Shown here: piece by piece, positions 7,218 through 60,351 of the stretch
Layout of the letters: every line of letters starts with the position of its first letter
Numbering within the stretch: position 1 is the stretch's first letter
IMG/VR virus record: IMGVR_UViG_3300009034_000003
Source of the DNA: a virus
Lineage: Duplodnaviria > Heunggongvirae > Uroviricota > Caudoviricetes
Direction: 5' to 3' (one strand)
DNA length: 64,000 nt
Translations under genes and position numbers: made by a program
The notes under the pieces: generated by a model
Database searches by the model: none
What the model saw: only the letters and a program-made list of their open reading frames with translations
Told to the model about the DNA's origin: nothing

Positions 7218-9560
7218 ATGGAGGAAACGAGAGAGGAAGCGGGATTTAGTATCCCGCTTCAGAAGATCAACTTTGATGCAAGCATCACTGGGATGTTTGC
7301 GCAGGTAAGCTGCGAACAGGAATTTGAGAATCAGAACGATGTTCCTGTTGAAGCAGTTTACGTATTTCCGTTGCCAGAGGACGCGTCGGTAGCGGGATGT
7401 GAAATAGTTATAGGTGACAAGAGAATAGAGGCGGAGCTAAAGGAGAAGGAGCAAGCCAAAAAAGAGTACGACGACGCAGTGGCTGCTGGTCATCACGCCG
7501 GTCTCTTAGAACAGCGAAGAGCAAATATCTTCGCAATTAACGTAGGCGGTATAGAGCCTGGTGAGAACATCAAGGTAGTTATCGTCTACAACCAGCGAGT
7601 CCCTTGGCAGGACAGCGGCGGAAGGTTCACTATTCCGTTGGTGGTAGCTCCTCGATTCATTCCAGGAGAGCCAAGTGGTTCTAAGACTGGAGAAGGCTGG
7701 GCAGAGGATACCGATGAAGTGCCCGACGCATCCCAGATCACACCAGTAGTAGCAAGGGAAGGTGTTAGCTATACCGCTGACATCGCTGTGACCTTGTCTC
7801 CAGGGTTCAAGTGTCAGGTCAGTAGTCCTAGCCATGAGATGGTAGAGAGCCTTGTCAAGGAGAATTCAGGAAAAAAGACAAGGTACGACATCATTGATTT
7901 GGAGATCGATACTCCTACTAAGCCAATCACGATTGAGGTCAAGGACCTAGTGCCGGATCGCGACTTCATTGTGAGCTACCAGACAAAGTCGACTCAGATT
8001 GGAACTGGAGTACATAGGGGAAGCTTCGAAGGCGAGGCGTACGTCACCATTGACGTCATCCCTCCTGGTGCCGCTTCACCTAAGCCCAAAGATGTTATTT
8101 TCTGTTTGGATACTTCCGGTAGTATGGGCGGACCTAAGCTGGACGGATTGAAGGTTGTAGCTGAGAAGGTCGCCAAGCGCCTATCCGAACAGAATAAAGA
8201 GACTCGGATAGGGATAGTGGCCTTTGCGAGTGAGGTCCATCCGCTCCGGCCATTATCCGGAGTTTCCGAAGCTACTTACAAGGAAATTCAGGGATTAGAA
8301 TCAGGCGGCGGTACATACGCTGGCAAGGCGCTTAATCACTGTTTCCAGCAGCTAGCAGCGGGAAGTAACAGAGAGAAGTACATCTTGCTCGTTAGCGATG
8401 GTCAGACGCAAGATAAGTGGTCGAGCGCAGTACCTGGCATTCGGGTTGTTTCTGTAGGTATAGGCACAGCAACAAACATGGCCTACTTGAAGGAAATAGC
8501 TCGAGAGACCAAAGGCGTAAGCCTCGCTGTTTATCCAGGCGAGGATTATGACACTGTAGCAAGTACTTTAGCTGGGTATCTCGCGGGTCCAGTGCTCACG
8601 GATATCGAGGTGACCGTAGATGGTAAGGCACTGGCTGATGTCCTGGGGATCACCGATGTCTATGCATCGATGCCTGCTTCTCTTGCTCTGAGGATAACTG
8701 AGCCAGAGGTAAATTGGCCAGAGAATATTCAGCTAGTCGGTATGGACAGTAAGGGAAAGAAGTCGGTGCTCGTCCTCGATATGAAAGATGTCGGTGAATG
8801 TCTCTTCGCTCATCAGATCTGGGCCAAAGAGAAGCTACGCGACCGGGATCTTTCTGCTGAGGACATTGTCGCACTCAGTTTGAAGTTCGGTGTCCTTTGC
8901 AGTGCAACGGCATTTGTTGCAGTGCATCTAAAGGACGTGCCTGGAGCCAAGCCGGAGCGGATAGCGATTCCGGTGGATTTACCTCACACCTGGGATTACG
9001 AAAGGATATTCGGTGAAGAGGTACCGGTTGGAGGAGTTATTTCCGGTCGGCGCATTCGTGGTCTAGTTTCGGGCGTCTACGCGTCCCGTGCGCTAGGGGA
9101 ATCGAGTGACGGGTACAGGCCGCCCGGTGTGTATCCTGAGAAGATGATGGAGTCGTTGTTGGATCTTGGCGAACCATCGACATCCGCTAGTAGTTCTTCC
9201 AGTACATCCACTTCGGGCCCAGAATACAAGACGCGTGCCCCAGAAGTAAAAGCGATCCACGCTCAAGTCGTGGATGCGCTTGAGAATTTTGTCGATGAAC
9301 TCGAGCAGGATTCTATAGAGAGGGCCGCTGCAGTTGTACTCTGGGAGTCTTTGAAAAAGCAGATAACTAGGGAGAGCGTGGCTTTTTGGCCTGCCGATCA
9401 AAAATCACGGGCGTTCTACCTTCTCCTTAAGCTGCGAGCCTTCGGGTTTCATGGGGCAAAGGATGTCTTGAAGTTGCTTTCTATAGAGCCCAGTTCATTA
9501 GATCCCCTTGCCCATGGATGGTGGGAAAAGGCGCAACTGATCCTGGGAGTAGCAGTGTGA
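7218..9560 (+). CDS. VIT domain + von Willebrand factor A (vWA) domain protein
   Basis: N-terminal VIT-like block (YVFPLPEDASVAGCEIVIGDKRIEAELKEKEQAKKEYDDAVAAG...IFAINVGGIEPGENIKVVIVY); central vWA with MIDAS motif DTSGS (VIFCLDTSGSMGG...ILLVSDGQ). Confidence 0.75.
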   Translation: MEETREEAGFSIPLQKINFDASITGMFAQVSCEQEFENQNDVPVEAVYVFPLPEDASVAGCEIVIGDKRIEAELKEKEQAKKEYDDAVAAGHHAGLLEQRRANIFAINVGGIEPGENIKVVIVYNQRVPWQDSGGRFTIPLVVAPRFIPGEPSGSKTGEGWAEDTDEVPDASQITPVVAREGVSYTADIAVTLSPGFKCQVSSPSHEMVESLVKENSGKKTRYDIIDLEIDTPTKPITIEVKDLVPDRDFIVSYQTKSTQIGTGVHRGSFEGEAYVTIDVIPPGAASPKPKDVIFCLDTSGSMGGPKLDGLKVVAEKVAKRLSEQNKETRIGIVAFASEVHPLRPLSGVSEATYKEIQGLESGGGTYAGKALNHCFQQLAAGSNREKYILLVSDGQTQDKWSSAVPGIRVVSVGIGTATNMAYLKEIARETKGVSLAVYPGEDYDTVASTLAGYLAGPVLTDIEVTVDGKALADVLGITDVYASMPASLALRITEPEVNWPENIQLVGMDSKGKKSVLVLDMKDVGECLFAHQIWAKEKLRDRDLSAEDIVALSLKFGVLCSATAFVAVHLKDVPGAKPERIAIPVDLPHTWDYERIFGEEVPVGGVISGRRIRGLVSGVYASRALGESSDGYRPPGVYPEKMMESLLDLGEPSTSASSSSSTSTSGPEYKTRAPEVKAIHAQVVDALENFVDELEQDSIERAAAVVLWESLKKQITRESVAFWPADQKSRAFYLLLKLRAFGFHGAKDVLKLLSIEPSSLDPLAHGWWEKAQLILGVAV

Positions 9561-28352: not shown

Positions 28353-29231
28353 ATGCATGATATATTTGAGGTAGCATATGGTACAATTGTTGGTCGGGAC
28401 CACCTTTATACGGGAAGAGGAATCCGGAAGACCTTGATCGGAGCTAATAACCAGGATGGCTTTCGTCTTCTTTGTGGCGACGACTATATCATCGCAGTTG
28501 TTAGCGACGGGTGTGGTAGTAGCCGTAACAGCGAAGTCGGAGCACGGGTTGGGTCACATCTTGTTGTGGAGACCATCTATCGTAATCTGGAAAAACACTA
28601 TGCTGGATTTACGTCATTAGGTCTAGATAATGTGGAGCAATTTCTAGAGCGCGTAAGACTAGACGTTTTGTCTCATCTTCGAATTTTAGCTAATAGCATG
28701 AGTTCAGGTCTATCGCGAGTAGTTAACAGCAATTTCTTTTTCACTGTGCTAGGTGTGATAGTGACGTGGGACCACGCAGTGATCTTTTCCATAGGCGATG
28801 GTTATTTCTTTGTCAACGGAGAAATGACCGCCATTAGTTTTCCTGAGAATACACCTCCATATATTGCGTACGGCGTTACAGGGTCTACGTTAACTTATGA
28901 GCATCCTGAGCTTCTTCATTTTCAAGTTCATAAGGTGATGCCTATTGAAGATGTCGAGACGCTTTTAGTTGGAACGGATGGATTGAAGTATATGATCGAT
29001 GCCGAAGCGCAGAATGTCCCTGGAAAGCAAGAGTTAGTTGGTCCCGTGAGTCAGTTCTGGGAGGATGATCGCTATTTTGCAAATGAGTTCATGGTTACAC
29101 GAAGGTTCGGCCTTGTTAACCGCGATTACCTAAATATTGATTGGGATAATAGGCGCTTGACAGAAGAGCAAGGGAAGCTAAGGGATGATACTACGCTAGT
29201 GGTTATCAGGAAAAAGGGATATAATGGTTAA
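28353..29231 (+). CDS. PP2C/PPM-family Ser/Thr protein phosphatase
   Basis: VVSDGCGSS, SIGDGYFFVNGE and LLVGTDGL match the PPM metal-binding aspartate blocks; agagga RBS before ATG 28353 (ORF track begins at 28311, inside the promoter motif). Confidence 0.55.
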   Translation: MHDIFEVAYGTIVGRDHLYTGRGIRKTLIGANNQDGFRLLCGDDYIIAVVSDGCGSSRNSEVGARVGSHLVVETIYRNLEKHYAGFTSLGLDNVEQFLERVRLDVLSHLRILANSMSSGLSRVVNSNFFFTVLGVIVTWDHAVIFSIGDGYFFVNGEMTAISFPENTPPYIAYGVTGSTLTYEHPELLHFQVHKVMPIEDVETLLVGTDGLKYMIDAEAQNVPGKQELVGPVSQFWEDDRYFANEFMVTRRFGLVNRDYLNIDWDNRRLTEEQGKLRDDTTLVVIRKKGYNG

Positions 29232-31125
29232 CGAAGTATATATAAACGGAAAAAGAATAGCACTTGATCCTACTCGCTCGATTGGCATAGGTGGGGAGGC
29301 CGAGATTTTTGATATCGGAACCGATGCTTTGAAGGTGTTCAAAACTCCTGACCATCCTGACTACAAGAACCCTGATGGCAGTGATAATCGTGTAGAACAA
29401 GAGGGAGCTCTTGATCGAATTCAAGTTCATCAGCGAAAGCTACCTGCTCTGATGCAGTTAGCATCCCGACTTCCTGATCACATCGTTACGCCTAAAGAAC
29501 TTGGCACCGACCGCAACGGGCAGGTGGTCGTAGGTTATACGATGCTTCGTCTGGATGATGTCGAGCCTATTCTTCAGTTTTTTAAGAGGGACTTTCACGA
29601 TAAAGGACTCTCAAATAACATTGTTACAAGAGTCTTCTACGAATTGTACAAGATGATTTCAGGTGGTCATAGTGCTGAGTTTATCATTGGTGATTTTAAT
29701 CCGCTCAATGTGCTCGTGACCGCAAAATGGGCTCCCTATGTCATCGATGTAGATAGTGGGCAGTTTGCTAAGTTCCTGTGCAAAGTTTACACAGAACGTT
29801 ATGTGGATCCGTTGCTTTGTGATCCCGGTGCGAAGGCACCTACCCTCTCGAAACCTTATAACAAGTATTCAGACTGGTATTCTTTTACTGTTATGCTCTT
29901 CACATCTCTTTTGTGTGTAAACCCTCATGGAGGCGTATATAAGCCAAAAGGGAAGATTAAACGGATGACCCCTGGCGCAAGAGTACTTCAACGTATTACG
30001 GTCTTCGATCCAGATATAGTCTATCCCAGAGCCTCTTTAGCTTTTCATTTCGGAATCCTGCCTGACGATCTAATGCAACAATTTTATAGGACATTCAAGA
30101 AAGACGAGCGCGGTGCATTCCCTATTAACCTTCTTGAAGATATTCGCTGGACTAAGTGTACAGTTTGCGGTTTGGAACACGCTAGGTCAAGGTGTCCTTC
30201 ATGCGACAAGGCACCTCCTACAGCGATCAAGGAAGTGACTGTGGTGAGAGGTAAAGTGAAAGCTATACGGATTTTCAAGACATCAGGCCTTATCGTCTTT
30301 GCAGATCGCCAAAACGATAAGCTTCTTTGGTTATATCATGAGGGCGGCAAGTATAAACGAGAAGATGGTAAGGTAGCCGCGGAGGGTAGTCTTAATGCGC
30401 GTTTGAGGTTTCGTATTCAAGGGGATCGTACGCTTCTCGGTCAAAAGGGAACCCTTTTAACTATTTTGCCAGAATATAGTCCTACCCGCAGGCGTATCGA
30501 TAACTATGTGAACTTACCTATATTTGATGCTAATCAGGAGCACGTTTATTGGTTGGATGGAGGTAGACTTGAGCGCGAGGATAAAATCGCTCCAAAGCAT
30601 ATCGGAAACGTCTTAGCAGGGCAAACCCTTTTCTGGGTTGGGCCTACATTTGGTTTCGGTTTCTATAGAGCTGGGTCCTATAACGTGGCTTTTGTGTTTG
30701 ATGCGGAGCGTACCGGAATCAATGACTCGGTTAAGATATCACCAATCCGCGGTCAACTTATTGATTCTACATGTTTCTTTACTAAAAAGCTTTGCTGGTT
30801 TCTTGTGGCGACTCAAGAGAGCGGTAAGACTATACATCGGTGTTCTGTTATTCGACCTGATGGTTCCGTTGAAGCGACTGCAGAAGCTGAAGCTGGCGAC
30901 GGGTCGTGGTTATCGCAGTTGCGAGGAAAGTGTGCTTTAGGAAGATTTTTGTTTGTGGCAACAGACTCGGGTATCATTAGAGTAGAACCTACTGGCGGAC
31001 GTATTGTGAAAAGTGGCGAATTTCCTGATACGGAGCAGTTCGTTGATAGTGGTTGCCACCTTTTTTCTGGAGAAGGGATCTATGTTGTAGATCGTCATGA
31101 GATCAGGCTTCTTCAGATTGGGTAG
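29224..31125 (+). CDS. Hanks-type Ser/Thr protein kinase with C-terminal zinc-ribbon-containing extension
   Basis: Gly-rich loop IGIGGEAEIF, lysine ALKVFK, catalytic loop IIGDFNPLNVLV (D..N), DFG-like VIDVDSG; then CTVCGLEHARSRCPSCDK and a roughly 350-aa C-terminal region. Confidence 0.65.
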   Translation: MVNEVYINGKRIALDPTRSIGIGGEAEIFDIGTDALKVFKTPDHPDYKNPDGSDNRVEQEGALDRIQVHQRKLPALMQLASRLPDHIVTPKELGTDRNGQVVVGYTMLRLDDVEPILQFFKRDFHDKGLSNNIVTRVFYELYKMISGGHSAEFIIGDFNPLNVLVTAKWAPYVIDVDSGQFAKFLCKVYTERYVDPLLCDPGAKAPTLSKPYNKYSDWYSFTVMLFTSLLCVNPHGGVYKPKGKIKRMTPGARVLQRITVFDPDIVYPRASLAFHFGILPDDLMQQFYRTFKKDERGAFPINLLEDIRWTKCTVCGLEHARSRCPSCDKAPPTAIKEVTVVRGKVKAIRIFKTSGLIVFADRQNDKLLWLYHEGGKYKREDGKVAAEGSLNARLRFRIQGDRTLLGQKGTLLTILPEYSPTRRRIDNYVNLPIFDANQEHVYWLDGGRLEREDKIAPKHIGNVLAGQTLFWVGPTFGFGFYRAGSYNVAFVFDAERTGINDSVKISPIRGQLIDSTCFFTKKLCWFLVATQESGKTIHRCSVIRPDGSVEATAEAEAGDGSWLSQLRGKCALGRFLFVATDSGIIRVEPTGGRIVKSGEFPDTEQFVDSGCHLFSGEGIYVVDRHEIRLLQIG

Positions 31126-31140
31126 AAGGGAGACAGGAGA

Positions 31141-31452
31141 ATGATCAAACGAGAGAAGATGTCAAAGATGATGAACTGGGTTTTATTCGGGACTGCAGGT
31201 TTCCTGACTGCTATTTTCCTTGTAGCGGGTTACGTGGCAGAGTCTGTCTATGAATGGACGAGAGGGCCAATAGAGGCTAAAGTGGCCGTTGGGCAGGTAA
31301 AGGACGATCCCGAGGCTTATACGGCGACCCGAATAGCTGCTTCCAATTTTCCAGTAAAGGTTATTTGGGGAGCAATGTCCGGAGCGATAATATGTACGTG
31401 GCTTGTGACGTTCTTTATTTATCGGTTCAAGTTGCGTATCACGGATCTTTAA
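31141..31452 (+). CDS. membrane protein (2 TM)
   Basis: 103 aa with two hydrophobic helices. Confidence 0.45.
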   Translation: MIKREKMSKMMNWVLFGTAGFLTAIFLVAGYVAESVYEWTRGPIEAKVAVGQVKDDPEAYTATRIAASNFPVKVIWGAMSGAIICTWLVTFFIYRFKLRITDL

Positions 31453-31531
31453 GGGGGTGATATATGAGTAGATATTTGTGTTTTGGCTAGATGCGTTAAA
31501 CATGTGTCCAAGTCGGAGAGGAGAAAGGAAG

Positions 31532-32533
31532 ATGAAGAAATTTGTGTTTACAGGGATAGTTGTTGCGATCGCTATAGCGATTATGGTCAGTGTTTTTGGT
31601 TGCGGGAAACCTATGATAGAGATGAACGTGGAAATCGAACCTAATGAAACTGCGTTTGTCATCCCGCTCGAAGGCGACACTGCAGCGCAAGCGAGGTTCG
31701 AATCTGCAGAGTATTTGGAGAACTTGAAAGTCGCTGCGAAGAGGATCATCCTGCCCCAACGAAAGAAGAAGACCGGGCGGTATAGTAGGAATTACGTGTG
31801 GATAGCCACCGTTAGAGTGATTAAGGTTTCCCGAGAGCCTGAGAGTCGCGAGTGGACGGAGGATCCAACGACGGGGACAGGTCCTAAGGACGAAGCGCTT
31901 CACATGGAGTCCAAGGATGGTATCAACTTTTATACTGGGGTAGCTATCACAGCGAAGGTCATGGAGGCTAATACCTCTACGTTTTTGTATACCTATCCTT
32001 CGGGGAAGCTGTCGATCGTTCTAGATAGAGATGTCAGGGCTTCTGCTCAGGAGAAGTTAGCTGGTGAGTTTGGAAGGCTAGATCAGACTGAGTGCAACGA
32101 TCAGAAGTCTGACATCTTCCAGAGAGTGAAGGAGGCGCTCGTCGAGGATTTTGCTAAAGAGGGAATCACCATCACGACTTTCGGCCAACAAGGCGGCTTC
32201 ATGTTTATAGACAAATCAATTCAAGACGCTATAAACGCGAGGTTCGCTGCTGAGTTGGATAAGAAGACCGCTACTGAAGAGCAGTTAGCCCAAGAAACTC
32301 GGAACACGATGGCTGAGGACAAAGCTGCCTCCGATCGAAAGGTTGCCGAGGAGTATGCGAAGCAGCAAAAGGCTCAAAAGGAGATAAAGCTCCTAGATAT
32401 CCAGATGGTTGTAGCTGAGGCCCTTAAAGCTAGTGCTGCACAAGGCCAGCCGATTGTTCCACAGATCTCCAGTGGTGCAGGGGGCGGAAGCATGATATAT
32501 CAGATACTCGCACCCGCACTCAAGGGGCAATAG
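31532..32533 (+). CDS. putative lipoprotein with charged coiled-coil C-terminus (SPFH/band-7-like?)
   Basis: MKKFVFTGIVVAIAIAIMVSVFGC lipobox signal after ggagaaagga RBS; AEE/KQQKAQKE-rich C-terminus. Confidence 0.4.
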   Translation: MKKFVFTGIVVAIAIAIMVSVFGCGKPMIEMNVEIEPNETAFVIPLEGDTAAQARFESAEYLENLKVAAKRIILPQRKKKTGRYSRNYVWIATVRVIKVSREPESREWTEDPTTGTGPKDEALHMESKDGINFYTGVAITAKVMEANTSTFLYTYPSGKLSIVLDRDVRASAQEKLAGEFGRLDQTECNDQKSDIFQRVKEALVEDFAKEGITITTFGQQGGFMFIDKSIQDAINARFAAELDKKTATEEQLAQETRNTMAEDKAASDRKVAEEYAKQQKAQKEIKLLDIQMVVAEALKASAAQGQPIVPQISSGAGGGSMIYQILAPALKGQ

Positions 32534-32686
32534 TTTTTAGGTTGGGTAGGGAGGTGATGCCAGTGCGCCGTAGTTTCCCTGACAGGGTTGCCACGGATAT
32601 TCTTGAGTAATTAGGGAGGTTGGGTGGGTTACTTGATTTGTAGTTTTTGTTCTAGGCGGAGATTTAGCAAAGGAGGAGATTGAGAA

Positions 32687-33760
32687 ATGGCTGTAAAACA
32701 ACTTCCAATTCCAGATTTCTTTAACCCTGACAACGCGGGGCTCACTTCATATAGTCCAAATGCAAACGAGCTATTTGCTTTGGCCCAGACATGGCGAAAG
32801 GAGCATGATATTAAGCCTGCAGCGGGAGACAGGGTTAAGATTCATATCTTGGATATTGACTCGCAGTTCGACTTCAGCTTTCCTGAAGGCACACTTTACG
32901 TGGGAGGGCGCAGTGGCACCGGCGCTATAGATGCGCACCGGAATCTCGGGAACTTTATATATAAGTATCTGTATATGATTTCACAGATTACGAATACTCT
33001 GGATAGCCATTTACCTATCCAGGTGTTCTTTCCAACTGCTCATCTGCGTAAGGATGGAAGTCATCCTGAACCCAACACGATTGTTTCAGCAGAGGAGTAT
33101 CACAAAGGCGATTACAGAGCGAATCCGGCAGTGGCTAAGGAGCTAGGTGCTGATCCTAATTGGCTCAACAGGCAGTTCACATATTATTGCGAACAGCTTG
33201 AGAAGGTTGATCCCGTAACAGGACGAGCAAAGTATCAGCTCTATCTGTGGCCATTCCACTGTCTCATCGGCAGCAGGGGCCACCCGCTTGTAGGTATCGT
33301 CGAAGAGATGAGGCTGTTCCATGCTTTCACAAGGAGTGCAGCTAATACCGTACAGATTAAAGGCGGGAGTCCTTTCACGGAGCACTATAGCATTTTTGCT
33401 CCGGAAGTGATGACGTTCTTTGATGGGTCTGCTATTCCTGGGGTGCAGAGGAATACGGTGCTCATCAATACACTTATGACGGCTGACATGGTGATAATCG
33501 TAGGGCTTGCGGATAGTCACTGCGTGAAAGAGTCAATTGCTGATTTGCAAAGCGATATTGCTTCACAGGATCCGGAACTCGCTAAGAAGGTATACATTAT
33601 GAAAGATTGCAGTGCTTCGGTGGTTATCCCTAATGTAATCGATTTCACCGATGCTGCAGAAGAAGCATTACAAGAGTTCCAGAACGCTGGGATGAATGTC
33701 GTGGAGAGTACTACACCGATCGAGGAGTGGCCAGGTGTAGATAAGATCCTAGATATCTAG
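32687..33760 (+). CDS. isochorismatase-family hydrolase (nicotinamidase PncA-like)
   Basis: HILDIDSQFDF (D..QNDF-type), TLDSH, and catalytic Cys in GLADSHCV, in the isochorismatase/PncA order. Confidence 0.5.
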   Translation: MAVKQLPIPDFFNPDNAGLTSYSPNANELFALAQTWRKEHDIKPAAGDRVKIHILDIDSQFDFSFPEGTLYVGGRSGTGAIDAHRNLGNFIYKYLYMISQITNTLDSHLPIQVFFPTAHLRKDGSHPEPNTIVSAEEYHKGDYRANPAVAKELGADPNWLNRQFTYYCEQLEKVDPVTGRAKYQLYLWPFHCLIGSRGHPLVGIVEEMRLFHAFTRSAANTVQIKGGSPFTEHYSIFAPEVMTFFDGSAIPGVQRNTVLINTLMTADMVIIVGLADSHCVKESIADLQSDIASQDPELAKKVYIMKDCSASVVIPNVIDFTDAAEEALQEFQNAGMNVVESTTPIEEWPGVDKILDI

Positions 33761-33779
33761 GCGGAGAGGAGGAGAGTAA

Positions 33780-34607
33780 GTGGATCAAAAAGATGTTGAT
33801 TCAACAGTCAATGTAGACGATATGCTTAAAACGGCTGAGCAGGAGAATATTTTCTCTCAGCCAGTATTAGACGTCATTAAGACGGCAGACCTTGGTACCC
33901 AAATTGGTGCTGGTCTGGGTGCAACGCCCGATGACCTCAAGGCCTATAATGCGTTATTGATAGCTGCGATCATTGATAACTCTAGTTCGATCTCAGGTAT
34001 ACCAGACGGACCGGAGGCCGTATGTGCAGGGCAGAACCTTTACATCGAAGCGTTTATAGGGTCTAAGCAGGAAGCAGGTATCCTCCTAGGAACCTGGCTT
34101 ATCAATGAGGATGATCCTGTGCATCCATTCGTCGCAGCGGAAGATGCTGTGCTCTTGGAAAACGGCGTGAACTACCATGCTCAAGGCGTTACACCATTGT
34201 ACAGGAAGACCAGTACTGTACTAGCGACGTTGGGCCTGAAGATGCAAGTAGAGTATGCTGACGCTGGATGTCCGTGTAGCGGTATTTTACTTATTGTCAC
34301 TGATGGACGTGACGAGGACTATTACCACACCGGAAAGCCTTTCACAGCGCAGCATGTCAAGTCTATGATCGAGGACTTAGGGGAGAATCTGATCGTGCAA
34401 TTCATGGGTATCGCTGGAAATAAGGACGTCGATTTTAGACAGATTGCTCTGGAGATGGGCGTTCAACCTCAGTTTATCATGACACCTGATGCTACTGCCC
34501 ATGATATCCGCGACTCATTCGATCTCGCTAGTAAGTCAGCTGTTGCTGCGAGTAAAACTGCAGATAGTTTCTCGCAGCAAGCTGCAAAGGGCTTCACCGT
34601 GGACTAG
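33780..34607 (+). CDS. vWA-like domain protein
   Basis: IIDNSSSIS (DxSxS MIDAS-like) and ILLIVTDGRDED. Confidence 0.4.
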   Translation: MDQKDVDSTVNVDDMLKTAEQENIFSQPVLDVIKTADLGTQIGAGLGATPDDLKAYNALLIAAIIDNSSSISGIPDGPEAVCAGQNLYIEAFIGSKQEAGILLGTWLINEDDPVHPFVAAEDAVLLENGVNYHAQGVTPLYRKTSTVLATLGLKMQVEYADAGCPCSGILLIVTDGRDEDYYHTGKPFTAQHVKSMIEDLGENLIVQFMGIAGNKDVDFRQIALEMGVQPQFIMTPDATAHDIRDSFDLASKSAVAASKTADSFSQQAAKGFTVD

Positions 34608-34688: not shown

Positions 34689-34783
34689 CAAAACCCCATC
34701 CGAAGGGTTCCGGAGCGCTTTAATCTTTGTTTATGATACCTCGGCTGCGCTTTGGAGCCCTTTGGCTTAGGGAGGAAGTAGAT

Positions 34784-36160
34784 ATGCGATATATGATGCT
34801 AGTAATAGCAGTAATTTCAATGGGCACTTTGATAGTAAATTGTGTTCTAGGAAATGTAGTCACATTGTTTGAAGACAACGAGCCTTTAGCTGGAAGATTG
34901 ACAGGTGGAGATGCAGTTGTAAGTATCGAACGCTTCGATGTCTATCATGGATCAAGAGCAATTAAGGTTGCTGCACCTATAATTGGGAACACAGGCCAAG
35001 CAAATAGCAGGTGCATTCTCGACTGGGAGTACAAAGTTGTCAAAAGACCGGTCGGAAGCAACGAAGTTCGATGGGTTATGTTCGCATGGAAAAAGCCAGA
35101 CAGCGACGGCATTATGGTTCAGTTTGCTGATGACTGCAGCTGGGGAGCGAATGTTCTCAGGTATTTTGCTGGTAAGAACCTCTCGGGATGGAAAGCCATT
35201 AGGGTGAGCAATCATGTCCCGCGAGGGTGGCAGATTGTGATCAGGGACCTATATTCCGATTTCGGCAATTTTACGTTGACCGGCATATCCCTCACACCTT
35301 TTAATGGTGTTGGGCTATTTGATTCTATTTATCTGGCAAAGAGCAAAGAAGATCTGCTTTCAGTCTTTGAGCCCACGCTAGGCACCGAGGTGTTTGTGGA
35401 TACTCCTAGCCGGGTGAGCGACGGCGCTACTTTTACTGCTTCTATAGAGGTTCGAAATGTATACGATTTAGCCGGATTTGAGATGGAAGTGAGCTTTAAT
35501 CCCGATGTTATTAAGGTTAACAGGGTAGAAGAGGGTACTTTTCTATCGAGCGGCGGGGTGACGTATTGGCTAAACCCCGATGATGATAATAGCAGAGGGA
35601 AGATAACCGAGATTGCATGTGTTCGAACGGACGGACGCAGTGGTGATGGTACCCTATTTACTATAGTATTTAAGGCTCGAGACGAAGGGAGTAGCAACAT
35701 TGTACTGGAAAATGTACGTTTAGCTGATTCAGAAGTCAGGATTATACCCACCAAAGTAACGGATGCCAGTGTGGAAGTGGCAACTGTTCCGCGCTGGGAT
35801 GTTAACGCTGACGGACGTGTCGATTTCCTTGATTTAGTAATAGTGGCACAGCATTTCGGGGAGTATATAAACCAGCCGGGCGAGGAAAATCCAGACGTTA
35901 CCGGCGACGGGAAAGTGGATGTAACAGACCTTATCACGGTGGGAAGGCACTATGGAGATGTCTATGGGGATGCCGCTCCAAGTAAACTCGCTTACTCTGT
36001 GCCGTTACGATTTGTACCATCCCTTGAAAAAGCACTTGATTTAGTTCGAAGTAGCCCTCATCCTGATAAAACCACTATAAAGTTGTTGATGGGCTTGATA
36101 AAGAATGCCAAGCCTATCAAAGACTCTACTTGGGGAGCACGCAAGTTCGAGCTAAGGTGA
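34784..36160 (+). CDS. secreted cohesin domain + dockerin domain protein
   Basis: Signal peptide MRYMMLVIAVISMGTLIVNC after gggagga RBS; cohesin-like block (FTASIEVRNVYDLAGFEMEVSFNPDVIKV...LFTIVFKARDEGSSNIVLENVRLAD); duplicated dockerin Ca-binding repeats DVNADGRVDFLDLVIVAQHFG and DVTGDGKVDVTDLITVGRHYG. Confidence 0.6.
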   Translation: MRYMMLVIAVISMGTLIVNCVLGNVVTLFEDNEPLAGRLTGGDAVVSIERFDVYHGSRAIKVAAPIIGNTGQANSRCILDWEYKVVKRPVGSNEVRWVMFAWKKPDSDGIMVQFADDCSWGANVLRYFAGKNLSGWKAIRVSNHVPRGWQIVIRDLYSDFGNFTLTGISLTPFNGVGLFDSIYLAKSKEDLLSVFEPTLGTEVFVDTPSRVSDGATFTASIEVRNVYDLAGFEMEVSFNPDVIKVNRVEEGTFLSSGGVTYWLNPDDDNSRGKITEIACVRTDGRSGDGTLFTIVFKARDEGSSNIVLENVRLADSEVRIIPTKVTDASVEVATVPRWDVNADGRVDFLDLVIVAQHFGEYINQPGEENPDVTGDGKVDVTDLITVGRHYGDVYGDAAPSKLAYSVPLRFVPSLEKALDLVRSSPHPDKTTIKLLMGLIKNAKPIKDSTWGARKFELR

Positions 36161-36576
36161 AACTGGACGAAGACAGATTGGCCTATTTGATACAGCATTA
36201 CGATCTGGTGCGGGTACTGCCTAGTTTGATTGAGCTAGAGCCGATGGAGAGGGAGCTCCTTGATGCCGGGTTAATGGAAATCGTTACCCGGCGAGCCGTG
36301 TCCAAGAGCGCTGATGGAAGTGTCGACGTGGGTCCTCGTCGGGTTTTAGTACTTTCAGAAGCGGCAAGGGAACTAGTGAGACGTCGCGCAGGACTGCGCT
36401 TGGTAAATGAGTTATTGTCTCGGGCGCATCCGCCTTTTTCCGCACCCGATTTAGGGAAAATAGTGGCCCGAGTTCCCTTTCACGCTCTTCCGTTGCTTCT
36501 TGCTTGTGGTGATAGTTCGATACGGGATCTGGCGGCCAGGAGAACGCGGAAACGGGAGTTTTTTCGAAGGATATGA
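36130..36576 (+). CDS. HEAT-tail family protein
   Basis: RLAYLIQHYDL N-terminal motif; C-terminal HALPLLLACGDSSIRDLAARR. Confidence 0.5.
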   Translation: MGSTQVRAKVKLDEDRLAYLIQHYDLVRVLPSLIELEPMERELLDAGLMEIVTRRAVSKSADGSVDVGPRRVLVLSEAARELVRRRAGLRLVNELLSRAHPPFSAPDLGKIVARVPFHALPLLLACGDSSIRDLAARRTRKREFFRRI

Positions 36577-36582
36577 ATCCAA

Positions 36583-36966
36583 GTGGATCTATCGGAACAT
36601 TTGCTTAGGTCTTTGACTTCTGCTTACTGGGTGATCCGTTCTTTGCCGCATCTTGGGAGACTCAGTGCCAACGAGAAAGAGTTAATGTCTTTAGGCTTGC
36701 TTGAGGTTGACATTGTAGGTATGGACGATCCTCCGGAGGACAGAAGATATGAGATAAAGATATCAGACGCAGGGGCACAGCTGGTTGAGGAGCGTTGCGT
36801 TCTAGCTTTGATAGAGTACGGCTGTGCGTCCGGCGTTGTGTACGGTAACAAAGTAAACGATTTGATTAAAAAAGTTCCCAAGGAGCGGCTTCCCAGGTTG
36901 CTAGCAAGCGATAACAATATTGTACGGCAAGTGGCAAAGGCACGATTAGAAGATGGAATTAACTGA
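36583..36966 (+). CDS. HEAT-tail family protein
   Basis: LLRSLTSAYWV N-terminal motif; C-terminal ERLPRLLASDNNIVRQVAKARLEDG. Confidence 0.55.
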   Translation: MDLSEHLLRSLTSAYWVIRSLPHLGRLSANEKELMSLGLLEVDIVGMDDPPEDRRYEIKISDAGAQLVEERCVLALIEYGCASGVVYGNKVNDLIKKVPKERLPRLLASDNNIVRQVAKARLEDGIN

Positions 36967-37339
36967 GGAACAAGTCGATTGGTTGGTTGAGCATTACGTT
37001 AATCCTGGACGTGCTCGAGGGAAGATGCCTTCACTTGAGCAGTCACTCCTAGACCTAGGTCTGATAAAGAGTGAGTGTTTTCCTACAAGGGACACGAATA
37101 TATACGTTCTATCGCTTACTGAAGAGGGATGGAAGGAAGCTGCCGGGTACAGGTTTGCAGAAGTAGTGGAGAAGTGCAAGGGAGTATTTTCTGGGGAGGC
37201 TATAGGAAGAGTCGTGATAGGTGGGTTGTCCCTAGGTGCTTTACCAGTACTACTCAGCAATGAAAGTGTGCTAGTGCAGAAATATGCGTCCAAGAGGCTC
37301 GAGCAGCTAAGGCATGAGAATGACTGTGGAGATAGCTGA
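36953..37339 (+). CDS. HEAT-tail family protein
   Basis: VDWLVEHYV N-terminal motif; C-terminal GALPVLLSNESVLVQKYASKRLEQL. Confidence 0.55.
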   Translation: MELTEEQVDWLVEHYVNPGRARGKMPSLEQSLLDLGLIKSECFPTRDTNIYVLSLTEEGWKEAAGYRFAEVVEKCKGVFSGEAIGRVVIGGLSLGALPVLLSNESVLVQKYASKRLEQLRHENDCGDS

Positions 37340-37724
37340 TAAGGAATTCGAGTTAGCAGTGCTTATGTATGTACAAGAGCCTCAAATGTACCCCTTGGGT
37401 AGGGCGCAAGAGCTATTTGATCTAGGTATATTTCGGTCAAGTGGACAGTTTGGTCTCGTTGAGAATAGTACGAAGCTCAAGAGAGGCGAGGCTATTTACG
37501 GGGTTACGCTTGCGCAAAGAGGCGTTGATTTAATTGCTCAAGCTGATCCTGTGAGGGTAGCTCGGATATGGATAGATCATGATTTTATAGTAGCTGGTAC
37601 GGGGTGGATTCTAAGTAAGATGTCACGTGATCAATTGCCTGAATTCTTGTCTCATGAGAGCCAAGAGGTAAGGAAGGCAGCATTTGCACGCCTACAGGAC
37701 CTAGAACGCGAAGCCAATGGGTAA
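37314..37724 (+). CDS. HEAT-tail family protein
   Basis: C-terminal DQLPEFLSHESQEVRKAAFARLQDLE. Confidence 0.55.
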   Translation: MRMTVEIADKEFELAVLMYVQEPQMYPLGRAQELFDLGIFRSSGQFGLVENSTKLKRGEAIYGVTLAQRGVDLIAQADPVRVARIWIDHDFIVAGTGWILSKMSRDQLPEFLSHESQEVRKAAFARLQDLEREANG

Positions 37725-38148
37725 GGCAAACGTGCTAACTCTAAATGACAAGCACATCGGTATATTGGCTGAGTTATATTGGAACGGGTCTCAATTCTCA
37801 CGAACTACACCGGAATTGCGCAAAGAAATCGAGGAGCTAATTGAAGAAGGTTTTATTGAGGAACGTCGTACATTTTTCAAGGTTCTACAGTGGCAGTGGT
37901 GTGTTCGACTTACTGGAGCTGGTGAAAAAGTCCATATGGCGATGGATCCTGTGCGCGTTTTTAATCATTACATGAGAACTGCTGATTCTTCGCGAACACT
38001 TCCAGCGGCGTGTGCCGCGGTAGCTAAATTTACACTAGATCAATTGCCGGGAGCTCTTGCACACGAGAACGAGAAGGTAAGGGAAGCCGCTACAGAGAGA
38101 TTGAGAGAGCTATCTCGTGGACCCTACTACTGTGAAACTAACGGATGA
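37717..38148 (+). CDS. HEAT-tail family protein
   Basis: C-terminal DQLPGALAHENEKVREAATERLRELS. Confidence 0.55.
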   Translation: MGKANVLTLNDKHIGILAELYWNGSQFSRTTPELRKEIEELIEEGFIEERRTFFKVLQWQWCVRLTGAGEKVHMAMDPVRVFNHYMRTADSSRTLPAACAAVAKFTLDQLPGALAHENEKVREAATERLRELSRGPYYCETNG

Positions 38149-38563
38149 GGAGCTAGACTTATTGGCAACAGCGTATGTGAAGAATTACGCTCTTGCGGTT
38201 CCGCCGCCACAACGCCCTGTAGAAGTTAGTCCGGTAGCAGAAGAACTTGTAGACGCTGGTCTTCTCAAAGAAGACTACACGCTTGCAGAAAAGCCTCTTG
38301 GCAACGAGAGAATCAATTTGGTAAGGCCTACCGTAAAGGGGATAGCTGTTCTAAAAGAGATGGATCCCGTACGGGTGCTCGAAGCCCTTGTGCGGACGGA
38401 TGCTACTGGTGCAGGTACTGGTATTGCTGTTTTCTGGATACTTCGGCGGTTGTCTCTTGAGCAATTGCCTTTGGTCTTGTCGCATGAAATGGAGAGCTTG
38501 CGCAAGGCAGCAAAAACAAGGATGGATGAATTCGAGGGGGATGAAGCAAGTAGATCTGAGTAA
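38117..38563 (+). CDS. HEAT-tail family protein
   Basis: C-terminal EQLPLVLSHEMESLRKAAKTRMDEFE. Confidence 0.55.
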   Translation: MDPTTVKLTDEELDLLATAYVKNYALAVPPPQRPVEVSPVAEELVDAGLLKEDYTLAEKPLGNERINLVRPTVKGIAVLKEMDPVRVLEALVRTDATGAGTGIAVFWILRRLSLEQLPLVLSHEMESLRKAAKTRMDEFEGDEASRSE

Positions 38564-39427: not shown

Positions 39428-40462
39428 ATGAGTACGCGACTGGATCCGTCACCAATAGATTTTGAAAAACTTCGCCATAAGTTCTCAAGTATTCATGGCT
39501 TGACTATAGGCGATCAGACTCTGGATAGGAATTGCTCAGGGCAGTACGAAGGGTACTCAAGAGAGAAGGAGAGTCTTCCGATTTTTAGGGTTGCGCACGA
39601 GGTTTTTGGGCCAGGTGGTGCAGGTAACCTTGCTGCCAACTACTCCACCCTTGGTATCGGAACATCTGTTGCAGGTGTATGGGGTTATCCAACCGATCCT
39701 CATCGGAGATTGCTGGAGATGAGGTTCGATGAACTGGGGATAGATGCTACAGGTATGGTAGAGGGAGCGAGCACTCCCACTTTTGAAAAGTACTACTTTC
39801 CGAATGGAATGCATGTTATAAGGGTTGATGTTGCTTCTGGTGATTTGGCGGACTCTACAAGGCGCCAACTTATCGAGAGAGTCAGTCATTTTTTATCTAT
39901 TGACTTGGATTTTGTAGCTGTTGCTGACTACGATGATACAGGAAAGGGTGTGTGTAGCCAGCAGGTTCTGGAAGCAGTTGCATCTAGTGCATTGGTTCAG
40001 TTCGGAACTAGTAGACAGGGGATAAGGTCGTTCGTCGGTTTCGATACGTTGATGATTAACGAAAAGGAACTCTTTGAGTCCGTAGGAGACAGGCATCCGG
40101 ACCCCGAACGCAAAGCGGTATCGCTAATGTCTGTAACACAATCTAAGAAATTGGCTGTGACTCTCGGTGGACGCGGGATCCGTCTCTATCAGAGGAGCGG
40201 AAAGGTTATTGATTTAACCAGGGAAAACCCACTTAACGCAGCTGATGTTCCGGCATTTCCATTGGATGGTATGATAGATACTTGTGGATGTGGTGATACT
40301 TCTTTTGCGATGCTTTCTGCTAGTTTGGTGGCCGGATATACGTTCAAGGAGAGTGCCGTTCTCGCTAATAGTGCAGCTCGAGCAGCTGCGCGAAAGCTTT
40401 TTGGAGCTCATCCAGTTACTCTTGAAGAGGTAGAACGGGAATATAGGGAAGTGTATAGTTAG
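39428..40462 (+). CDS. PfkB-family sugar kinase resembling HldE domain I (D-glycero-beta-D-manno-heptose-7-phosphate kinase)
   Basis: GPGGAGNLAAN (compare RPGGAANVA), DTCGCGDTSFA (compare DVTGAGDTV) and C-terminal ANSAARAAARKLFGAHPVTLEEVE (compare [23 protein letters not shown]). Confidence 0.6.
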   Translation: MSTRLDPSPIDFEKLRHKFSSIHGLTIGDQTLDRNCSGQYEGYSREKESLPIFRVAHEVFGPGGAGNLAANYSTLGIGTSVAGVWGYPTDPHRRLLEMRFDELGIDATGMVEGASTPTFEKYYFPNGMHVIRVDVASGDLADSTRRQLIERVSHFLSIDLDFVAVADYDDTGKGVCSQQVLEAVASSALVQFGTSRQGIRSFVGFDTLMINEKELFESVGDRHPDPERKAVSLMSVTQSKKLAVTLGGRGIRLYQRSGKVIDLTRENPLNAADVPAFPLDGMIDTCGCGDTSFAMLSASLVAGYTFKESAVLANSAARAAARKLFGAHPVTLEEVEREYREVYS

Positions 40463-41458: not shown

Positions 41459-42004
41459 ATGATTTTGTCAAAAGAGGAGCTACTGGAGGATCTTGAAGCG
41501 TTCAGGCATATGGGCCGTAAAATTGTCACTACTAATGGTGTTTACGATATCATTCATGTAGGGCATACACGTTATTTGGAGGGCGCAAGGACGTGTGGTG
41601 ATATACTGATTGTGTTACTGAATAGCGATGAGTCGGTCCGTAATATTAAGGGGGCGGGCAGGCCTTTGGTTCCTGAGATGGAGAGGGCAGAGGTTCTTGA
41701 CTCTCTTGGAACCGTTGATTATGTAGTTTTGTTCAATGAACCAACACCGGATGCGCTACTCTCTGAGATAAGACCCGATGTTCATGTAAAGGGCGGGAAC
41801 TACGCTGTTAACGAGTTACCAGAAGCTGAGCTGGTTGAGTCTCTTGGTGGAACGGTCCTCACCTTAAACTATGTCGCGGGGAGGTCTACAACTAAACTGA
41901 TACAGGAGATCGTGACAAGATTTGGTACTTTCACTAAGGCGGTGCGAGCAGAAGAGCCCGATCCTAGTCAGGGTGCAGAGCCGACTGGAGGGAAAAATGG
42001 CTAA
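41459..42004 (+). CDS. D-glycero-beta-D-manno-heptose-1-phosphate adenylyltransferase (HldE domain II / RfaE-II-like cytidylyltransferase fold)
   Basis: NGVYDIIHVGHTRYLEGA (HxGH nucleotidyltransferase motif), NSDESVRNIKGAGRPLVP, VDYVVLFNEPTPDALLSEIRPDVHVKGGNY and GGTVLTLNYVAGRSTTKLIQEI closely follow the HldE-II consensus. Confidence 0.7.
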   Translation: MILSKEELLEDLEAFRHMGRKIVTTNGVYDIIHVGHTRYLEGARTCGDILIVLLNSDESVRNIKGAGRPLVPEMERAEVLDSLGTVDYVVLFNEPTPDALLSEIRPDVHVKGGNYAVNELPEAELVESLGGTVLTLNYVAGRSTTKLIQEIVTRFGTFTKAVRAEEPDPSQGAEPTGGKNG

Positions 42005-42530
42005 GGCAATGGTGTTGATAGCTGACGGCGTTGAGGATTTAGAGTTCTTCTATCCCAAGATTCGCCTTGAGGAAGCGGGCTTTGAAGTGTTAGTGGTAGG
42101 TGAGCTGGCGCAGGAATATGAGACGAAGCACGGGTATAAGGTTGACGCCCAAATAGCGTCGATCAATGATGCCCTGGAATGCTCTGTGTTAATTATTCCA
42201 GGTGGGACAGCTCCGGATAAACTGCGCCAAGATCCACAGATGCTTGAGATCACAAGGGAAATGGTGAATGCAGGGAAGATTGTTGGAGCTATATGTCACG
42301 GGCCCTTGGTGCTAGTTTCTGCTAAGGTGGTTGAAGGGAGAACGATGACTTCGTGGCCAGGGATTAAGGATGACCTTGTGAATGCTGGTGCTGATTGGAT
42401 AGATATGCCCGTGGTTCGTGATAGGAATATGGTAACAAGTAGGAAGCCGGATGATCTCTCCGCTTTTATGGAAGCGATTTGCAGTATGGCTGAGGTAGCG
42501 CGGCTATATCCTGAGGGGCAAACACAGTGA
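41997..42530 (+). CDS. DJ-1/PfpI family protein
   Basis: VLIADGVEDLEF...IPGG...AICHGP (nucleophile Cys elbow); start moved to the Met after ggaggg. Confidence 0.65.
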   Translation: MAKAMVLIADGVEDLEFFYPKIRLEEAGFEVLVVGELAQEYETKHGYKVDAQIASINDALECSVLIIPGGTAPDKLRQDPQMLEITREMVNAGKIVGAICHGPLVLVSAKVVEGRTMTSWPGIKDDLVNAGADWIDMPVVRDRNMVTSRKPDDLSAFMEAICSMAEVARLYPEGQTQ

Positions 42531-56846: not shown

Positions 56847-57449
56847 ATGGGAAGGTTTTTTGCTTTTGAGGGGATAAGCCGAGCGGGAAAGACGACGGCG
56901 TGTGGTCATGTTGAACGTCGGCTAGAGGAGATCGGGGAATCTGTGCGGCGCGAGCACGGGGGCTTTATCCTTGGTGCACGGGTTGCCGACGCGTTCGGGA
57001 CGTACCCGGACGAGGTAGTTTATATGCTCTTCTGGCAAGCGTTTCGACTTCTTGAGCTAGACAAAATTACACCGGCTCTTAACGAGGGCAAAATTGTTTT
57101 AGTTGACCGTTATGTATTGTCGAATCTTGCCCATAATTGGTGGACGGGTCTCGATCGGGATTTCCAATTGCGTACGGAGAGAGAGTACATACAACGCTGC
57201 TTGTTTCCAAGTATATATTTTGTGTTTACTGTTCCCTATGGACTTTTCTTAGAGCGCGGTGGCGACGGTGCTAAAGTGGACCGGGCTCTATTTGAGAAGA
57301 TACACCAGGACTACATTACCTGGGCACTACGTTTGTCTAACAACGGATTTTGTAAAACAATTCTTGTAGATGGTTCGAAGTCAGAAGAAGCCGTTGGTGA
57401 TTTTGTAATGCACTATATACGAAAAGAAATAGGTTTGGAGGGTGGCTAA
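56847..57449 (+). CDS. tmk: thymidylate/dNMP kinase
   Basis: P-loop FEGISRAGKTT, DRY motif VDRYVLSN; about 200 aa. Confidence 0.7.
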   Translation: MGRFFAFEGISRAGKTTACGHVERRLEEIGESVRREHGGFILGARVADAFGTYPDEVVYMLFWQAFRLLELDKITPALNEGKIVLVDRYVLSNLAHNWWTGLDRDFQLRTEREYIQRCLFPSIYFVFTVPYGLFLERGGDGAKVDRALFEKIHQDYITWALRLSNNGFCKTILVDGSKSEEAVGDFVMHYIRKEIGLEGG

Positions 57450-59961: not shown

Positions 59962-60351
59962 ATGTATACTGTTCGTCAAGTACCGGGAAACAGTGAAGAG
60001 GGAAGGTTTGCTACAAAGGCTGAGGTCCTGGAGTGGATCTATCAGCAAATGTTGCGTGGTGCGTCCTACGCTGAGGCTAGTAGGGAAGCGAGTGAACAAT
60101 TCGAGATCAGTGGTAATAGGGAGGTTCAAGCTGAGACCAGGAATGCGTCCGAGGAGGGAGACGAGATGGCCTACCCTAGTGGGTTACCCGTTGGCAATAT
60201 TTCCACGCCGGAGCAAGTAAGTGATACCACGAATGATAAGATTATCTCCCGTGCTGTCTCAAGGTTTGAAATGATAGAGATTGAGGGAATTGAAGGACGC
60301 TCGGGAAAAAGGAAAGGAAACGATGGAGAAAACGGAAGCGATAGATCCTAA
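59962..60351 (+). CDS. hypothetical acidic protein
   Basis: 129 aa; ggtgagagaggtATG. Confidence 0.4.
   Translation: MYTVRQVPGNSEEGRFATKAEVLEWIYQQMLRGASYAEASREASEQFEISGNREVQAETRNASEEGDEMAYPSGLPVGNISTPEQVSDTTNDKIISRAVSRFEMIEIEGIEGRSGKRKGNDGENGSDRS

Follow-up and report, generated by a model that had tools for sequence, protein, structure and literature searches.

The window analysed here is a 64,000-nucleotide (nt) stretch of DNA from a virus of the Caudoviricetes (IMG/VR record IMGVR_UViG_3300009034_000003), and the system that we describe lies in a tightly packed run of open reading frames (ORFs) at 28311/28353–34607, all on the + strand. Four genes of this run form a cassette with relatives in bacteria and in other viral contigs: a PP2C/PPM-family Ser/Thr phosphatase of 292 amino acids (aa; 28353..29231), a 633-aa Hanks-type protein kinase (29224–31125), a probable long PncA-type nicotinamidase of 357 aa (32687..33760) and a 275-aa vWA-fold protein with a complete metal-ion-dependent adhesion site (MIDAS) motif (33780..34607). 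A first-pass annotation of this DNA had recognized the phosphatase, the kinase and the vWA-like protein, and had reported that the first two genes overlap, which they do by 8 nt; the nicotinamidase, encoded between the kinase and vWA genes, is a partner absent from that annotation. Two further genes, encoding a 103-aa small protein with two hydrophobic segments (31141..31452, +) and a 351-aa SPFH/Band-7 lipoprotein-like protein (31478..32533, +), separate the kinase from the nicotinamidase and are lineage-specific inserts outside the conserved cassette. The base composition of the region is the same as that of the rest of the window, and promoter and terminator scans gave background levels.

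The phosphatase is recognized directly by its sequence, matching Pfam PP2C_2 with 67.4 bits against a curated cutoff of 24 bits (E = 1.6e-18). Its metal-binding residues D49, D66, D163, D223 and D292/D293, numbered as in the mechanical 306-aa ORF from GTG 28311, are invariant in 89 homologs. The homolog alignments begin not at that GTG but at ATG 28353, the start given in the first-pass annotation. The protein is 39–42% identical to the PP2C_2 gene product that heads the cellular cassettes.

The other two proteins for which the first-pass annotation had proposed profile searches are less readily placed. Searches of Pfam, NCBIfam, PADLOC and PHROGs, together with phmmer and profile searches of the Protein Data Bank (PDB), gave weak or no matches for the kinase and the vWA protein, so that fold-level tests were needed, and AlphaFold models of both were built on family alignments. 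By sequence, the kinase matches only PKA (E = 0.008) and the LanL kinase domain (3.6e-6), both weakly; the window protein has no Pfam family match, and 14 of 36 relatives match Pfam Pkinase. Its model (pLDDT, for predicted local distance difference test, 89.9, predicted template modelling score (pTM) 0.88) has the bilobal kinase fold in aa 1–~305 (29224..30138, +), with a Gly-rich loop, a VAIK-type Lys, a catalytic Asp, a Mg-binding Asn and a DFG-type Asp. The conserved residues comprise G21, G23, E25 and A26 of the Gly-rich loop, K37, D157 and N162 of the catalytic loop, D175/D177-S178 as the DFG equivalent and the D217-W218 motif of subdomain IX. The catalytic residues that had been named at the outset (Lys in ALKVFK, Asp in GDFNPLN, and DSG) are thus present, and they are invariant throughout the family.

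The C-terminal half of the kinase had been described as a 350-aa zinc-ribbon extension. The ribbon is real, with a CxxC...CPxC arrangement whose C312, C315, C324 and C327 are invariant in the family, but it covers only about 20 residues (aa ~309–330; 30148..30213, +); the rest is a separate all-beta domain of ~295 aa (aa ~336–633; 30229..31125, +), with 28 strands assigned by DSSP in the model. The ribbon gives weak profile matches to Nop10 zinc ribbons (E about 0.1), and kinase homologs are named ‘H/ACA RNP subunit 3’ in some sources. The beta-domain has 554 cluster representatives among 1.84 billion proteins, nearly all at the C terminus of proteins of ~605–660 aa, and this near-constant placement marks it as specific to this kinase family. 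Its strand count and a single WD40 propeller match, to a viral protein in BFVD (TMt 0.52), suggest a propeller-like fold in the model; self-HHalign detected no internal repeats, and in a fold search with the whole kinase model the kinase matches dominated, so that the beta-domain could not be separated. The kinase family is large, with more than 1,000 full-length relatives at ~50% identity. It is nearly absent from deposited phage genomes, where a single, distant match was found, in an uncultured phage of 595 kb. BFVD contains a 550-aa phage ‘Ser/Thr kinase’ (A0A8S5RYX0, Myoviridae sp. ctNQV2) that aligns structurally over both the kinase and the C-terminal domain (Foldseek E = 3.8e-23) and may belong to this family as a more remote phage branch.

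The 275-aa protein has no match by sequence profile in Pfam, the NCBIfam vWA/TerY models, PADLOC or PDB profiles. Its model (pLDDT 84.4, pTM 0.88) is clear: the top 50 Foldseek matches are all vWA or integrin I domains, and 135 matches reach E ≤ 1e-3. The MIDAS residues D66-x-S68-x-S70, T138 and T174-D175-G176 are invariant, and the protein is 34–36% identical to the product of the final gene of the cellular cassettes, so that the vWA assignment first made from the letters alone stands. PADLOC v2 contains TerY-P models; it returned no match at E ≤ 0.1 for the phosphatase, the kinase or the vWA protein. A VIT–vWA protein at 7218–9560 had also been listed as a nearby component. Pfam confirms its domains, but it lies 19 kb away, is not syntenic with the cassette and falls outside the conserved unit, and we rejected it as part of the system; it is of extracellular type, with partial likeness to the ‘marine proteobacterial sortase target’ family (TIGR03788, E = 6e-78, below cutoff).

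The fourth protein belongs to a family with over 2,100 homologs, to which NCBI and JGI give the name ‘nicotinamidase’, and is 42–43% identical to the product of the gene 3′ of the kinase in cyanobacterial cassettes. The family profile matched only two solved structures, Mycobacterium tuberculosis PncA and a Leishmania nicotinamidase, and its alignment to these covers three motifs: ViDdQvDF with the catalytic Asp, WPyHC with a metal-binding His and GlAsSHCV with the catalytic Cys. The Asp and Cys motifs align directly to D8 and C138 of M. tuberculosis PncA, and H191 of the W-P-x-H-C motif aligns to H71. Invariant residues of the family are D58, D106-x-H108, H191, K225 and C279; among these, we infer that K225 is the equivalent of the PncA catalytic Lys, and that D106-x-H108 would correspond to D49/H51, a segment for which HMMER gave no alignment. 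The only Pfam family matched by members is Isochorismatase (4 of 24, best E = 1.6e-6). The protein is ~150 aa longer than canonical PncA, through an N-terminal extension and a large insertion. Motifs and genomic context together make the identification as a PncA-type nicotinamidase well supported; it falls short of proof because of the weak statistical scores given below.

Some amidases of related loci carry an additional N-terminal domain of ~230 aa with no Pfam match (L006 9891–11669 and L026 9911–11653; loci are numbered from L001). The same domain, linked to the amidase or free-standing, occurs in L040 (9922–11673 and 12747–13436), L043 (9916–11730), L077 (9912–11648) and L093 (9836–11686 and 12857–13624); where free-standing, its gene lies 3′ of the vWA gene, as an accessory component that is not found in the window. 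An apparent long amidase in L087 was rejected as an over-extended ORF call.

Relatives of the module are distributed over 335 reference species and 15 IMG/VR contigs. We examined 99 loci (15 from IMG/VR, 80 from GTDB species representatives and 4 others), of which 83 hold all four genes and 77 have them on one strand in the exact order PP2C, kinase, amidase, vWA; contig ends account for most of the exceptions. The amidase gene alone is present in 91. In cyanobacterial loci the kinase gene has a PP2C_2 gene on its 5′ side and two unannotated genes, for proteins of ~350 and ~260 aa, on its 3′ side, which BLAST identified as counterparts of the 357-aa and vWA proteins; the cassette proteins of the window are 34–51% identical to their cyanobacterial counterparts. 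Five loci, from Spirulina, Prochloron and other cyanobacteria (L057, L058, L086, L091 and L092), have the kinase, usually with the PP2C, and no downstream amidase or vWA gene though the flank is present; in these the module may have been reduced or rearranged.

In the window, the cassette is split at the kinase–amidase junction (31126–32686) by the small membrane protein and the SPFH lipoprotein. The latter matches Pfam Band_7 (E = 2.6e-5, 24.8 bits against a 23.6-bit cutoff) and phrog_200 ‘lipoprotein’ (E = 3.5e-13), and has a signal-like N terminus ending in a lipobox-like VFGC. Neither protein has a homolog in the 99 related loci, and the 103-aa protein is also missing from the close relatives L102, L104 and L105. 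There the junction holds other ORFs: one of 139 aa in L102 (11894–12424), 56- and 50-aa ORFs in L104 (8490–8907) and one of 184 aa in L105 (965–1687). L102 has further inserts elsewhere in the cassette. Within the window’s clade the four genes are always kept while the spacers vary, as in L102 and L104, which retain all four despite their differing insertions. The junction therefore looks like a gene-insertion hot spot within an otherwise conserved operon. Because the inserts differ within the clade, and no related locus has the pair at that place, we rejected the SPFH and membrane proteins as parts of the system and regard them as a lineage-specific insertion. An unrelated Band_7 gene lies near the cassette in one Saccharibacteria locus. 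All four genes of the window are under purifying selection, with ratios of nonsynonymous to synonymous substitution rates (dN/dS) against L104 of 0.12 for PP2C, 0.10 for the kinase, 0.06 for the amidase and 0.07 for the vWA gene, at dS values of 0.7–1.6 that are partly saturated.

Clustering of the neighbouring ORFs of the 99 loci, with cluster representatives scanned against Pfam, showed what the cassette travels with. The most enriched families are NrtR (42 loci), NAPRTase/PncB (21), a CTP_transf_like + NAD_kinase fusion (18) and NadE (10); at least one of these four is present in 56 of the 99 loci, and a phosphoribosyl pyrophosphate synthetase (Prs) gene adjoins the cassette in 4 more. In 33 loci the NrtR gene lies upstream of the PP2C gene at a distance of no more than 600 bp. 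Among individual examples, L101 has NAPRTase directly upstream of the cassette, L100 surrounds it with an NrtR-type NUDIX regulator, three CTP_transf_like genes, CinA and Macro, and L001 has NrtR and an ADP-ribosylglycohydrolase. In five cyanobacterial-type loci (L001 7101–7916, L063, L070, L090 and L097) the ADP-ribosylglycohydrolase gene is inserted between PP2C and kinase, which is a further tie of the cassette to ADP-ribose metabolism. Neither ter genes, restriction genes nor CoCoNuT systems are among the cassette neighbours. In cellular genomes the cassette thus keeps company with NAD salvage under NrtR control, and not with tellurite resistance, restriction or known defence islands. We could make no link between the cassette and the nrtX–nrtY genes of Rodionov et al. 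2008 (PMC2330246).

A palindrome search upstream of the cassettes recovered TTAGTGT-N7-ACACTAA in both Patescibacteria and Cyanobacteria. When TAGTGT-N7-ACACTA was counted with at most 1 mismatch within 320 bp upstream of the PP2C gene, it was found at 49 of 71 cellular loci, 18 of them with two or more copies. Over 25.6 kb, these upstream regions contain 68 sites, and the remaining 1.09 Mb contains 23, a 126-fold difference in density, and shuffled windows average 0.075 sites; operators also occur at loci with no NrtR gene in the flank. Published NrtR operators are 21-bp palindromes that share a GT-N7-AC core; ADP-ribose frees NrtR from DNA, and pncA–pncB operons are typical members of its regulon (PMC2330246). 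This pattern of sites and its fit to the published rule would place the cellular four-gene operon in an ADP-ribose-responsive NAD-salvage regulon.

The viral copies have the module and not this control. At 14 viral (IMG/VR) loci the operator upstream of PP2C was found at none, and these viral loci have no NrtR gene. The window likewise lacks an NrtR gene, and neither it nor L102 or L103 contains an operator with up to 1 mismatch. Several viral loci do have NAPRTase, NMNAT–NADK or NadE beside the cassette. In two near-identical IMG/VR contigs a perfect NrtR-type box, TAGTGTTATAAGTACACTA, lies 61 bp upstream of the amidase gene (L009 2572, L010 10330) with no NrtR gene in the flank, an arrangement that may place this phage amidase gene under host NrtR. 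In a neighbour-joining tree of the kinase, built without support values, Cyanobacteria and Sorangium form coherent clades and the window falls in its own clade with P0002–P0007, whereas viral copies branch at no fewer than six points, chiefly among contigs of Patescibacteria and Gammaproteobacteria metagenome-assembled genomes (MAGs). This scatter suggests repeated exchange over a single capture.

These observations lead us to a reading that we consider somewhat more probable than improbable: the four genes form a phage-borne, TerY-P-like switch on nicotinamide salvage, whose viral copy has been freed of NrtR and serves NAD recycling in infection. It is the placing of bacterial copies under the ADP-ribose-sensing NrtR that makes NAD recycling the probable role, and not general host phosphosignalling. 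The manipulation of host phosphosignalling that the first-pass annotation had proposed is less favoured; the evidence points to a switch complete in itself, which accompanies an enzyme of nicotinamide recycling and probably controls it. The amidase would convert nicotinamide to nicotinate for use by PncB, nicotinate mononucleotide (NaMN) adenylyltransferase and NadE, so that NAD+ is rebuilt by the Preiss–Handler route. With NrtR-type operators, the cellular operon should turn on when ADP-ribose, a breakdown product of NAD+, accumulates, and would be derepressed once this signals NAD+ consumption. The kinase and PP2C would set the phosphorylation of a partner, for which the vWA protein and the amidase are the likeliest candidates; the vWA MIDAS site could act as a metal-dependent adaptor that binds this partner, and the zinc ribbon and beta-domain may be the sensing or docking part. 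The same logic has been proposed for TerY-P, and would here act on an enzyme of metabolism. In the phage, the NrtR-free copy would keep nicotinamide recycling running during infection, possibly offsetting NAD+-depleting host defences that release nicotinamide; the benefit should be greatest where nicotinamide is set free by NADases of the host. PncB, NMNAT and NadE would be supplied by the host or, in some related phages, by the phage itself; the window, which lacks all three, would need the host for the remaining steps.

A more specific form of this proposal is doubtful, and we offer it tentatively. The kinase/PP2C/vWA switch might read the NAD+/ADP-ribose state through the ribbon and beta-domain and gate the nicotinamidase, forming a control layer atop NrtR from Patescibacteria to cyanobacteria and myxobacteria, and large phages might repeatedly have captured it without the repressor as a fourth, deamidating route against NAD+ depletion.

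Several observations pull against the proposed role in NAD recycling. The PncA scores are weak, with E = 0.024 for the PDB profile and E = 9e-4 for NCBIfam, at 19 bits against a 174-bit cutoff. The kinase has an atypical catalytic loop, G-D-F-N-x-L-N in place of H-R-D-x-K-x-x-N, with no His-Arg and with Asn for Lys, and its alphaC glutamate was not identifiable. Searches of the 64-kb window by tblastn with the NAPRTase, NMNAT–NADK, NadE and Prs neighbours recovered no PncB, NMNAT-type or NadE gene. Finally, no capsid, terminase, tail or other virion gene was found in the window or in the L102 and L104 fragments.

What was first proposed for this locus, a TerY-P-type signalling or conflict triad that rewires host phosphorylation or hinders a host defence, would make the nicotinamidase a passenger. 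The domains and their architecture do match, as vWA, PP2C and a Ser/Thr kinase with a C-terminal zinc ribbon fit the published definition (PMC11090510); TerY-P-like modules defend against T7-like phages (PMC7699616); and the distribution is patchy, with horizontal transfer and copies on viral contigs. What tells against a mere triad is that the conserved core comprises four genes, with the amidase linked as tightly as the other three and the most constrained of them by dN/dS, that its neighbours are NAD-salvage genes and NrtR operators in place of ter, restriction or CoCoNuT genes, and that no PADLOC model was matched and the vWA protein escapes the Pfam and NCBIfam vWA/TerY models. We regard the triad as an unlikely account of the locus.

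The phage-borne aspect would be an artefact if the contig came from some other mobile element or, through mis-assembly, from a cellular genome such as one of Patescibacteria. Besides the missing virion genes, this possibility draws on the failure to find the window’s lineage, or any close relative of its DNA polymerase, in IMG/VR searches, and on the placement of the closest kinases outside its own clade on Patescibacteria MAG contigs. The gene content argues otherwise. All substantial ORFs of the window lie on one strand, with many small ORFs that lack homologs and a 23-member paralogous family; no tRNA, ribosomal or housekeeping genes were found, and the kinase has no homolog among plasmids. 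DnaB, primase, FEN, ribonucleotide reductase and Thg1-like genes match PHROGs, as do several families of unassigned function, and an 833-aa protein (57449–59950) fuses a uracil-DNA-glycosylase-superfamily domain, a 3′–5′ exonuclease and a family-A DNA polymerase with ~30% identity to SPO1/SP-10-like Bacillus phage polymerases. In lacking both the NrtR gene and the operator, the window also resembles the 14 IMG/VR copies and not the operator-bearing cellular majority. A non-phage origin thus appears improbable, and the phage assignment in the first-pass annotation is upheld as probable, not as proven: the contig is probably a large phage.

A conflict system with the nicotinamidase as effector is an alternative to which we assign little probability. 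Here nicotinamide would be destroyed and so denied to the NARP1 and NARP2 pathways of competing phages, which in a phage would amount to superinfection exclusion. Both pathways do use up nicotinamide (PMC13464706); a switch-like kinase/phosphatase/vWA layer with an ADP-ribose-sensing negative regulator is typical of conflict systems (PMC9503650); and viral and cellular copies interleave in the tree. The amidase is nevertheless co-located, apparently under the same operators, with the users of its product, PncB, NMNAT-like proteins and NadE, which implies a constructive salvage role; many cyanobacteria and seven Sorangium genomes carry the module stably on the chromosome, and no effector nucleases or toxins lie near the cassette. 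Least probable of all is that the 357-aa enzyme is an isochorismatase-fold hydrolase acting on another amide, such as a nucleotide- or protein-linked one, in a module handling another metabolite: its extra length, its weak PncA profile scores and the additional ~230-aa domain of some relatives would suit this, but there is no variation at the putative catalytic Asp/Lys/Cys or at the probable metal ligands D-x-H...H that set nicotinamidases apart from other isochorismatase-like hydrolases, both of the solved structures that were matched are nicotinamidases, and the pncA–pncB adjacency and NrtR control are those of published NrtR regulons (PMC2330246).

Beyond the cassette, the window has several features of its own. 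The paralogous family consists of small ORFs of ~80–230 aa with no Pfam or PHROG match, spread over 37 kb (4330–41452) on both sides of the cassette; its members include 27361–27801, 27804–28274, 36130–36576, 36583–36966, 36953–37339, 37314–37724, 37717–38148 and 38117–38563. A similar small-ORF array lies 3′ of the cassette in L104. Directly after the vWA gene, 34727–36160 encodes cohesin and dockerin domains behind a hydrophobic N terminus; L104 has a syntenic counterpart with 71% identity and the cellular cassettes have none, and such cellulosome-type modules are unusual for a phage-like genome. Further downstream are a PfkB-family kinase (39428–40462), a nucleotidyltransferase (41459–42004) and a DJ-1/PfpI protein (41922–42530). 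The nucleotidyltransferase matches CTP_transf_like, and we rejected it as an NMNAT since it is HldC/RfaE-II-like (PDB 5x9q, E = 2.4e-29); with the PfkB gene it may form an ADP-heptose-type sugar activation pair. Weak homologs of it adjoin the cassette in L006, L029, L082 and L100. The window also encodes an IS110-family transposase (18842–19813), the Thg1-like tRNA-His guanylyltransferase (24649–25335), a phosphoribosyltransferase fused to a helix–turn–helix domain (53396–54028), a GTP cyclohydrolase (54734–55495) and the ribonucleotide reductase, which has a TSCPD domain (60281–62650).

NAD+ depletion is a widespread anti-phage strategy, and the known phage counter-pathways, NARP1–3, all bypass the nicotinamidase step. 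If the proposal is true, a regulated nicotinamidase module in large phages would be a new route in the NAD+ arms race, common to hundreds of bacterial species under ADP-ribose-responsive control, and would mark the first direct wiring of Ser/Thr phospho-signalling to NAD salvage in bacteria. The TerY-P-like architecture, which is poorly understood, would gain a concrete metabolic partner, making its mechanism testable through the phosphorylated target and the MIDAS ligand. We found no description of the four-gene combination in the literature, with partial coverage of journals, so that an earlier description is possible.

Several known systems share part of this design. ADP-ribosylglycohydrolase-centred systems regulated by Nudix or WYL transcription factors have a predicted role against ADP-ribosylation by viruses (Iyer et al. 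2022, PMC9503650, section 3.8). They resemble the cassette in having an NrtR-like ADP-ribose-sensing regulator and an accessory vWA ‘chaperone’, and the five cyanobacterial cassettes with an ADP-ribosylglycohydrolase between PP2C and kinase add to the likeness. Those systems, however, combine the glycohydrolase with rhodanese, calcineurin, HD or HAD phosphatases, and have no kinase, PP2C or nicotinamidase. Phages are also known to reconstitute NAD+, through NARP1 (Adps and Namat), NARP2 (Nampt and Nmnat) and NARP3 (PnuC and NadR) (bioRxiv 10.1101/2024.02.11.579819; PMC13464706). Like these, the module would put phage enzymes to work on NAD+ breakdown products or precursors, and related viral contigs hold NAPRTase, NMNAT–NADK or NadE by the cassette; none of the three pathways uses a nicotinamidase or the deamidated Preiss–Handler route, or has a kinase/phosphatase/vWA layer. 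Phage G has a PncA-like gene recorded as of unknown function (PMC12484599).

The NrtR-controlled pncA–pncB operons of Rodionov et al. 2008 (PMC2330246) resemble the cellular relatives, whose nicotinamidase gene adjoins NrtR, PncB and NadD/NadE-type genes behind a 21-bp palindrome with the GT-N7-AC core. The published regulons contain only metabolic genes, whereas here the amidase, a long form of ~350 aa, sits within a kinase/phosphatase/vWA unit, and the copy in the window has neither NrtR gene nor operator.

The closest architectural parallel is TerY-P itself, defined by a TerY-like vWA protein, a PP2C and a Ser/Thr kinase that has a zinc ribbon fused at its C terminus (PMC11090510, summarizing Anantharaman et al. 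2012 and the defence systems of Gao et al. 2020, where an OB fold is an alternative to the ribbon). The cassette likewise combines a MIDAS-bearing vWA protein, a PP2C and a Hanks-type kinase with a zinc ribbon in one operon, which by analogy makes a metal- and phosphorylation-dependent switch plausible. It differs in a fourth obligatory gene, the nicotinamidase, between kinase and vWA, so that the core is not one of three genes; in its gene order of PP2C, kinase, amidase, vWA; in the extra ~295-aa beta-domain that follows the ribbon in the window’s kinase family; in a vWA protein with no Pfam vWA match; and in its association with NAD salvage under NrtR, not with ter genes, restriction systems or CoCoNuTs. 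Given the four-gene core, the missing PADLOC match and these differing genomic associations, we take the module to be a TerY-P-like phospho-switch tied to nicotinamide salvage, outside the TerY-P defence triad as described so far. What sets it apart is this proposed dedication of a TerY-P-like switch to nicotinamide recycling, together with copies in probable large phages that have no repressor.

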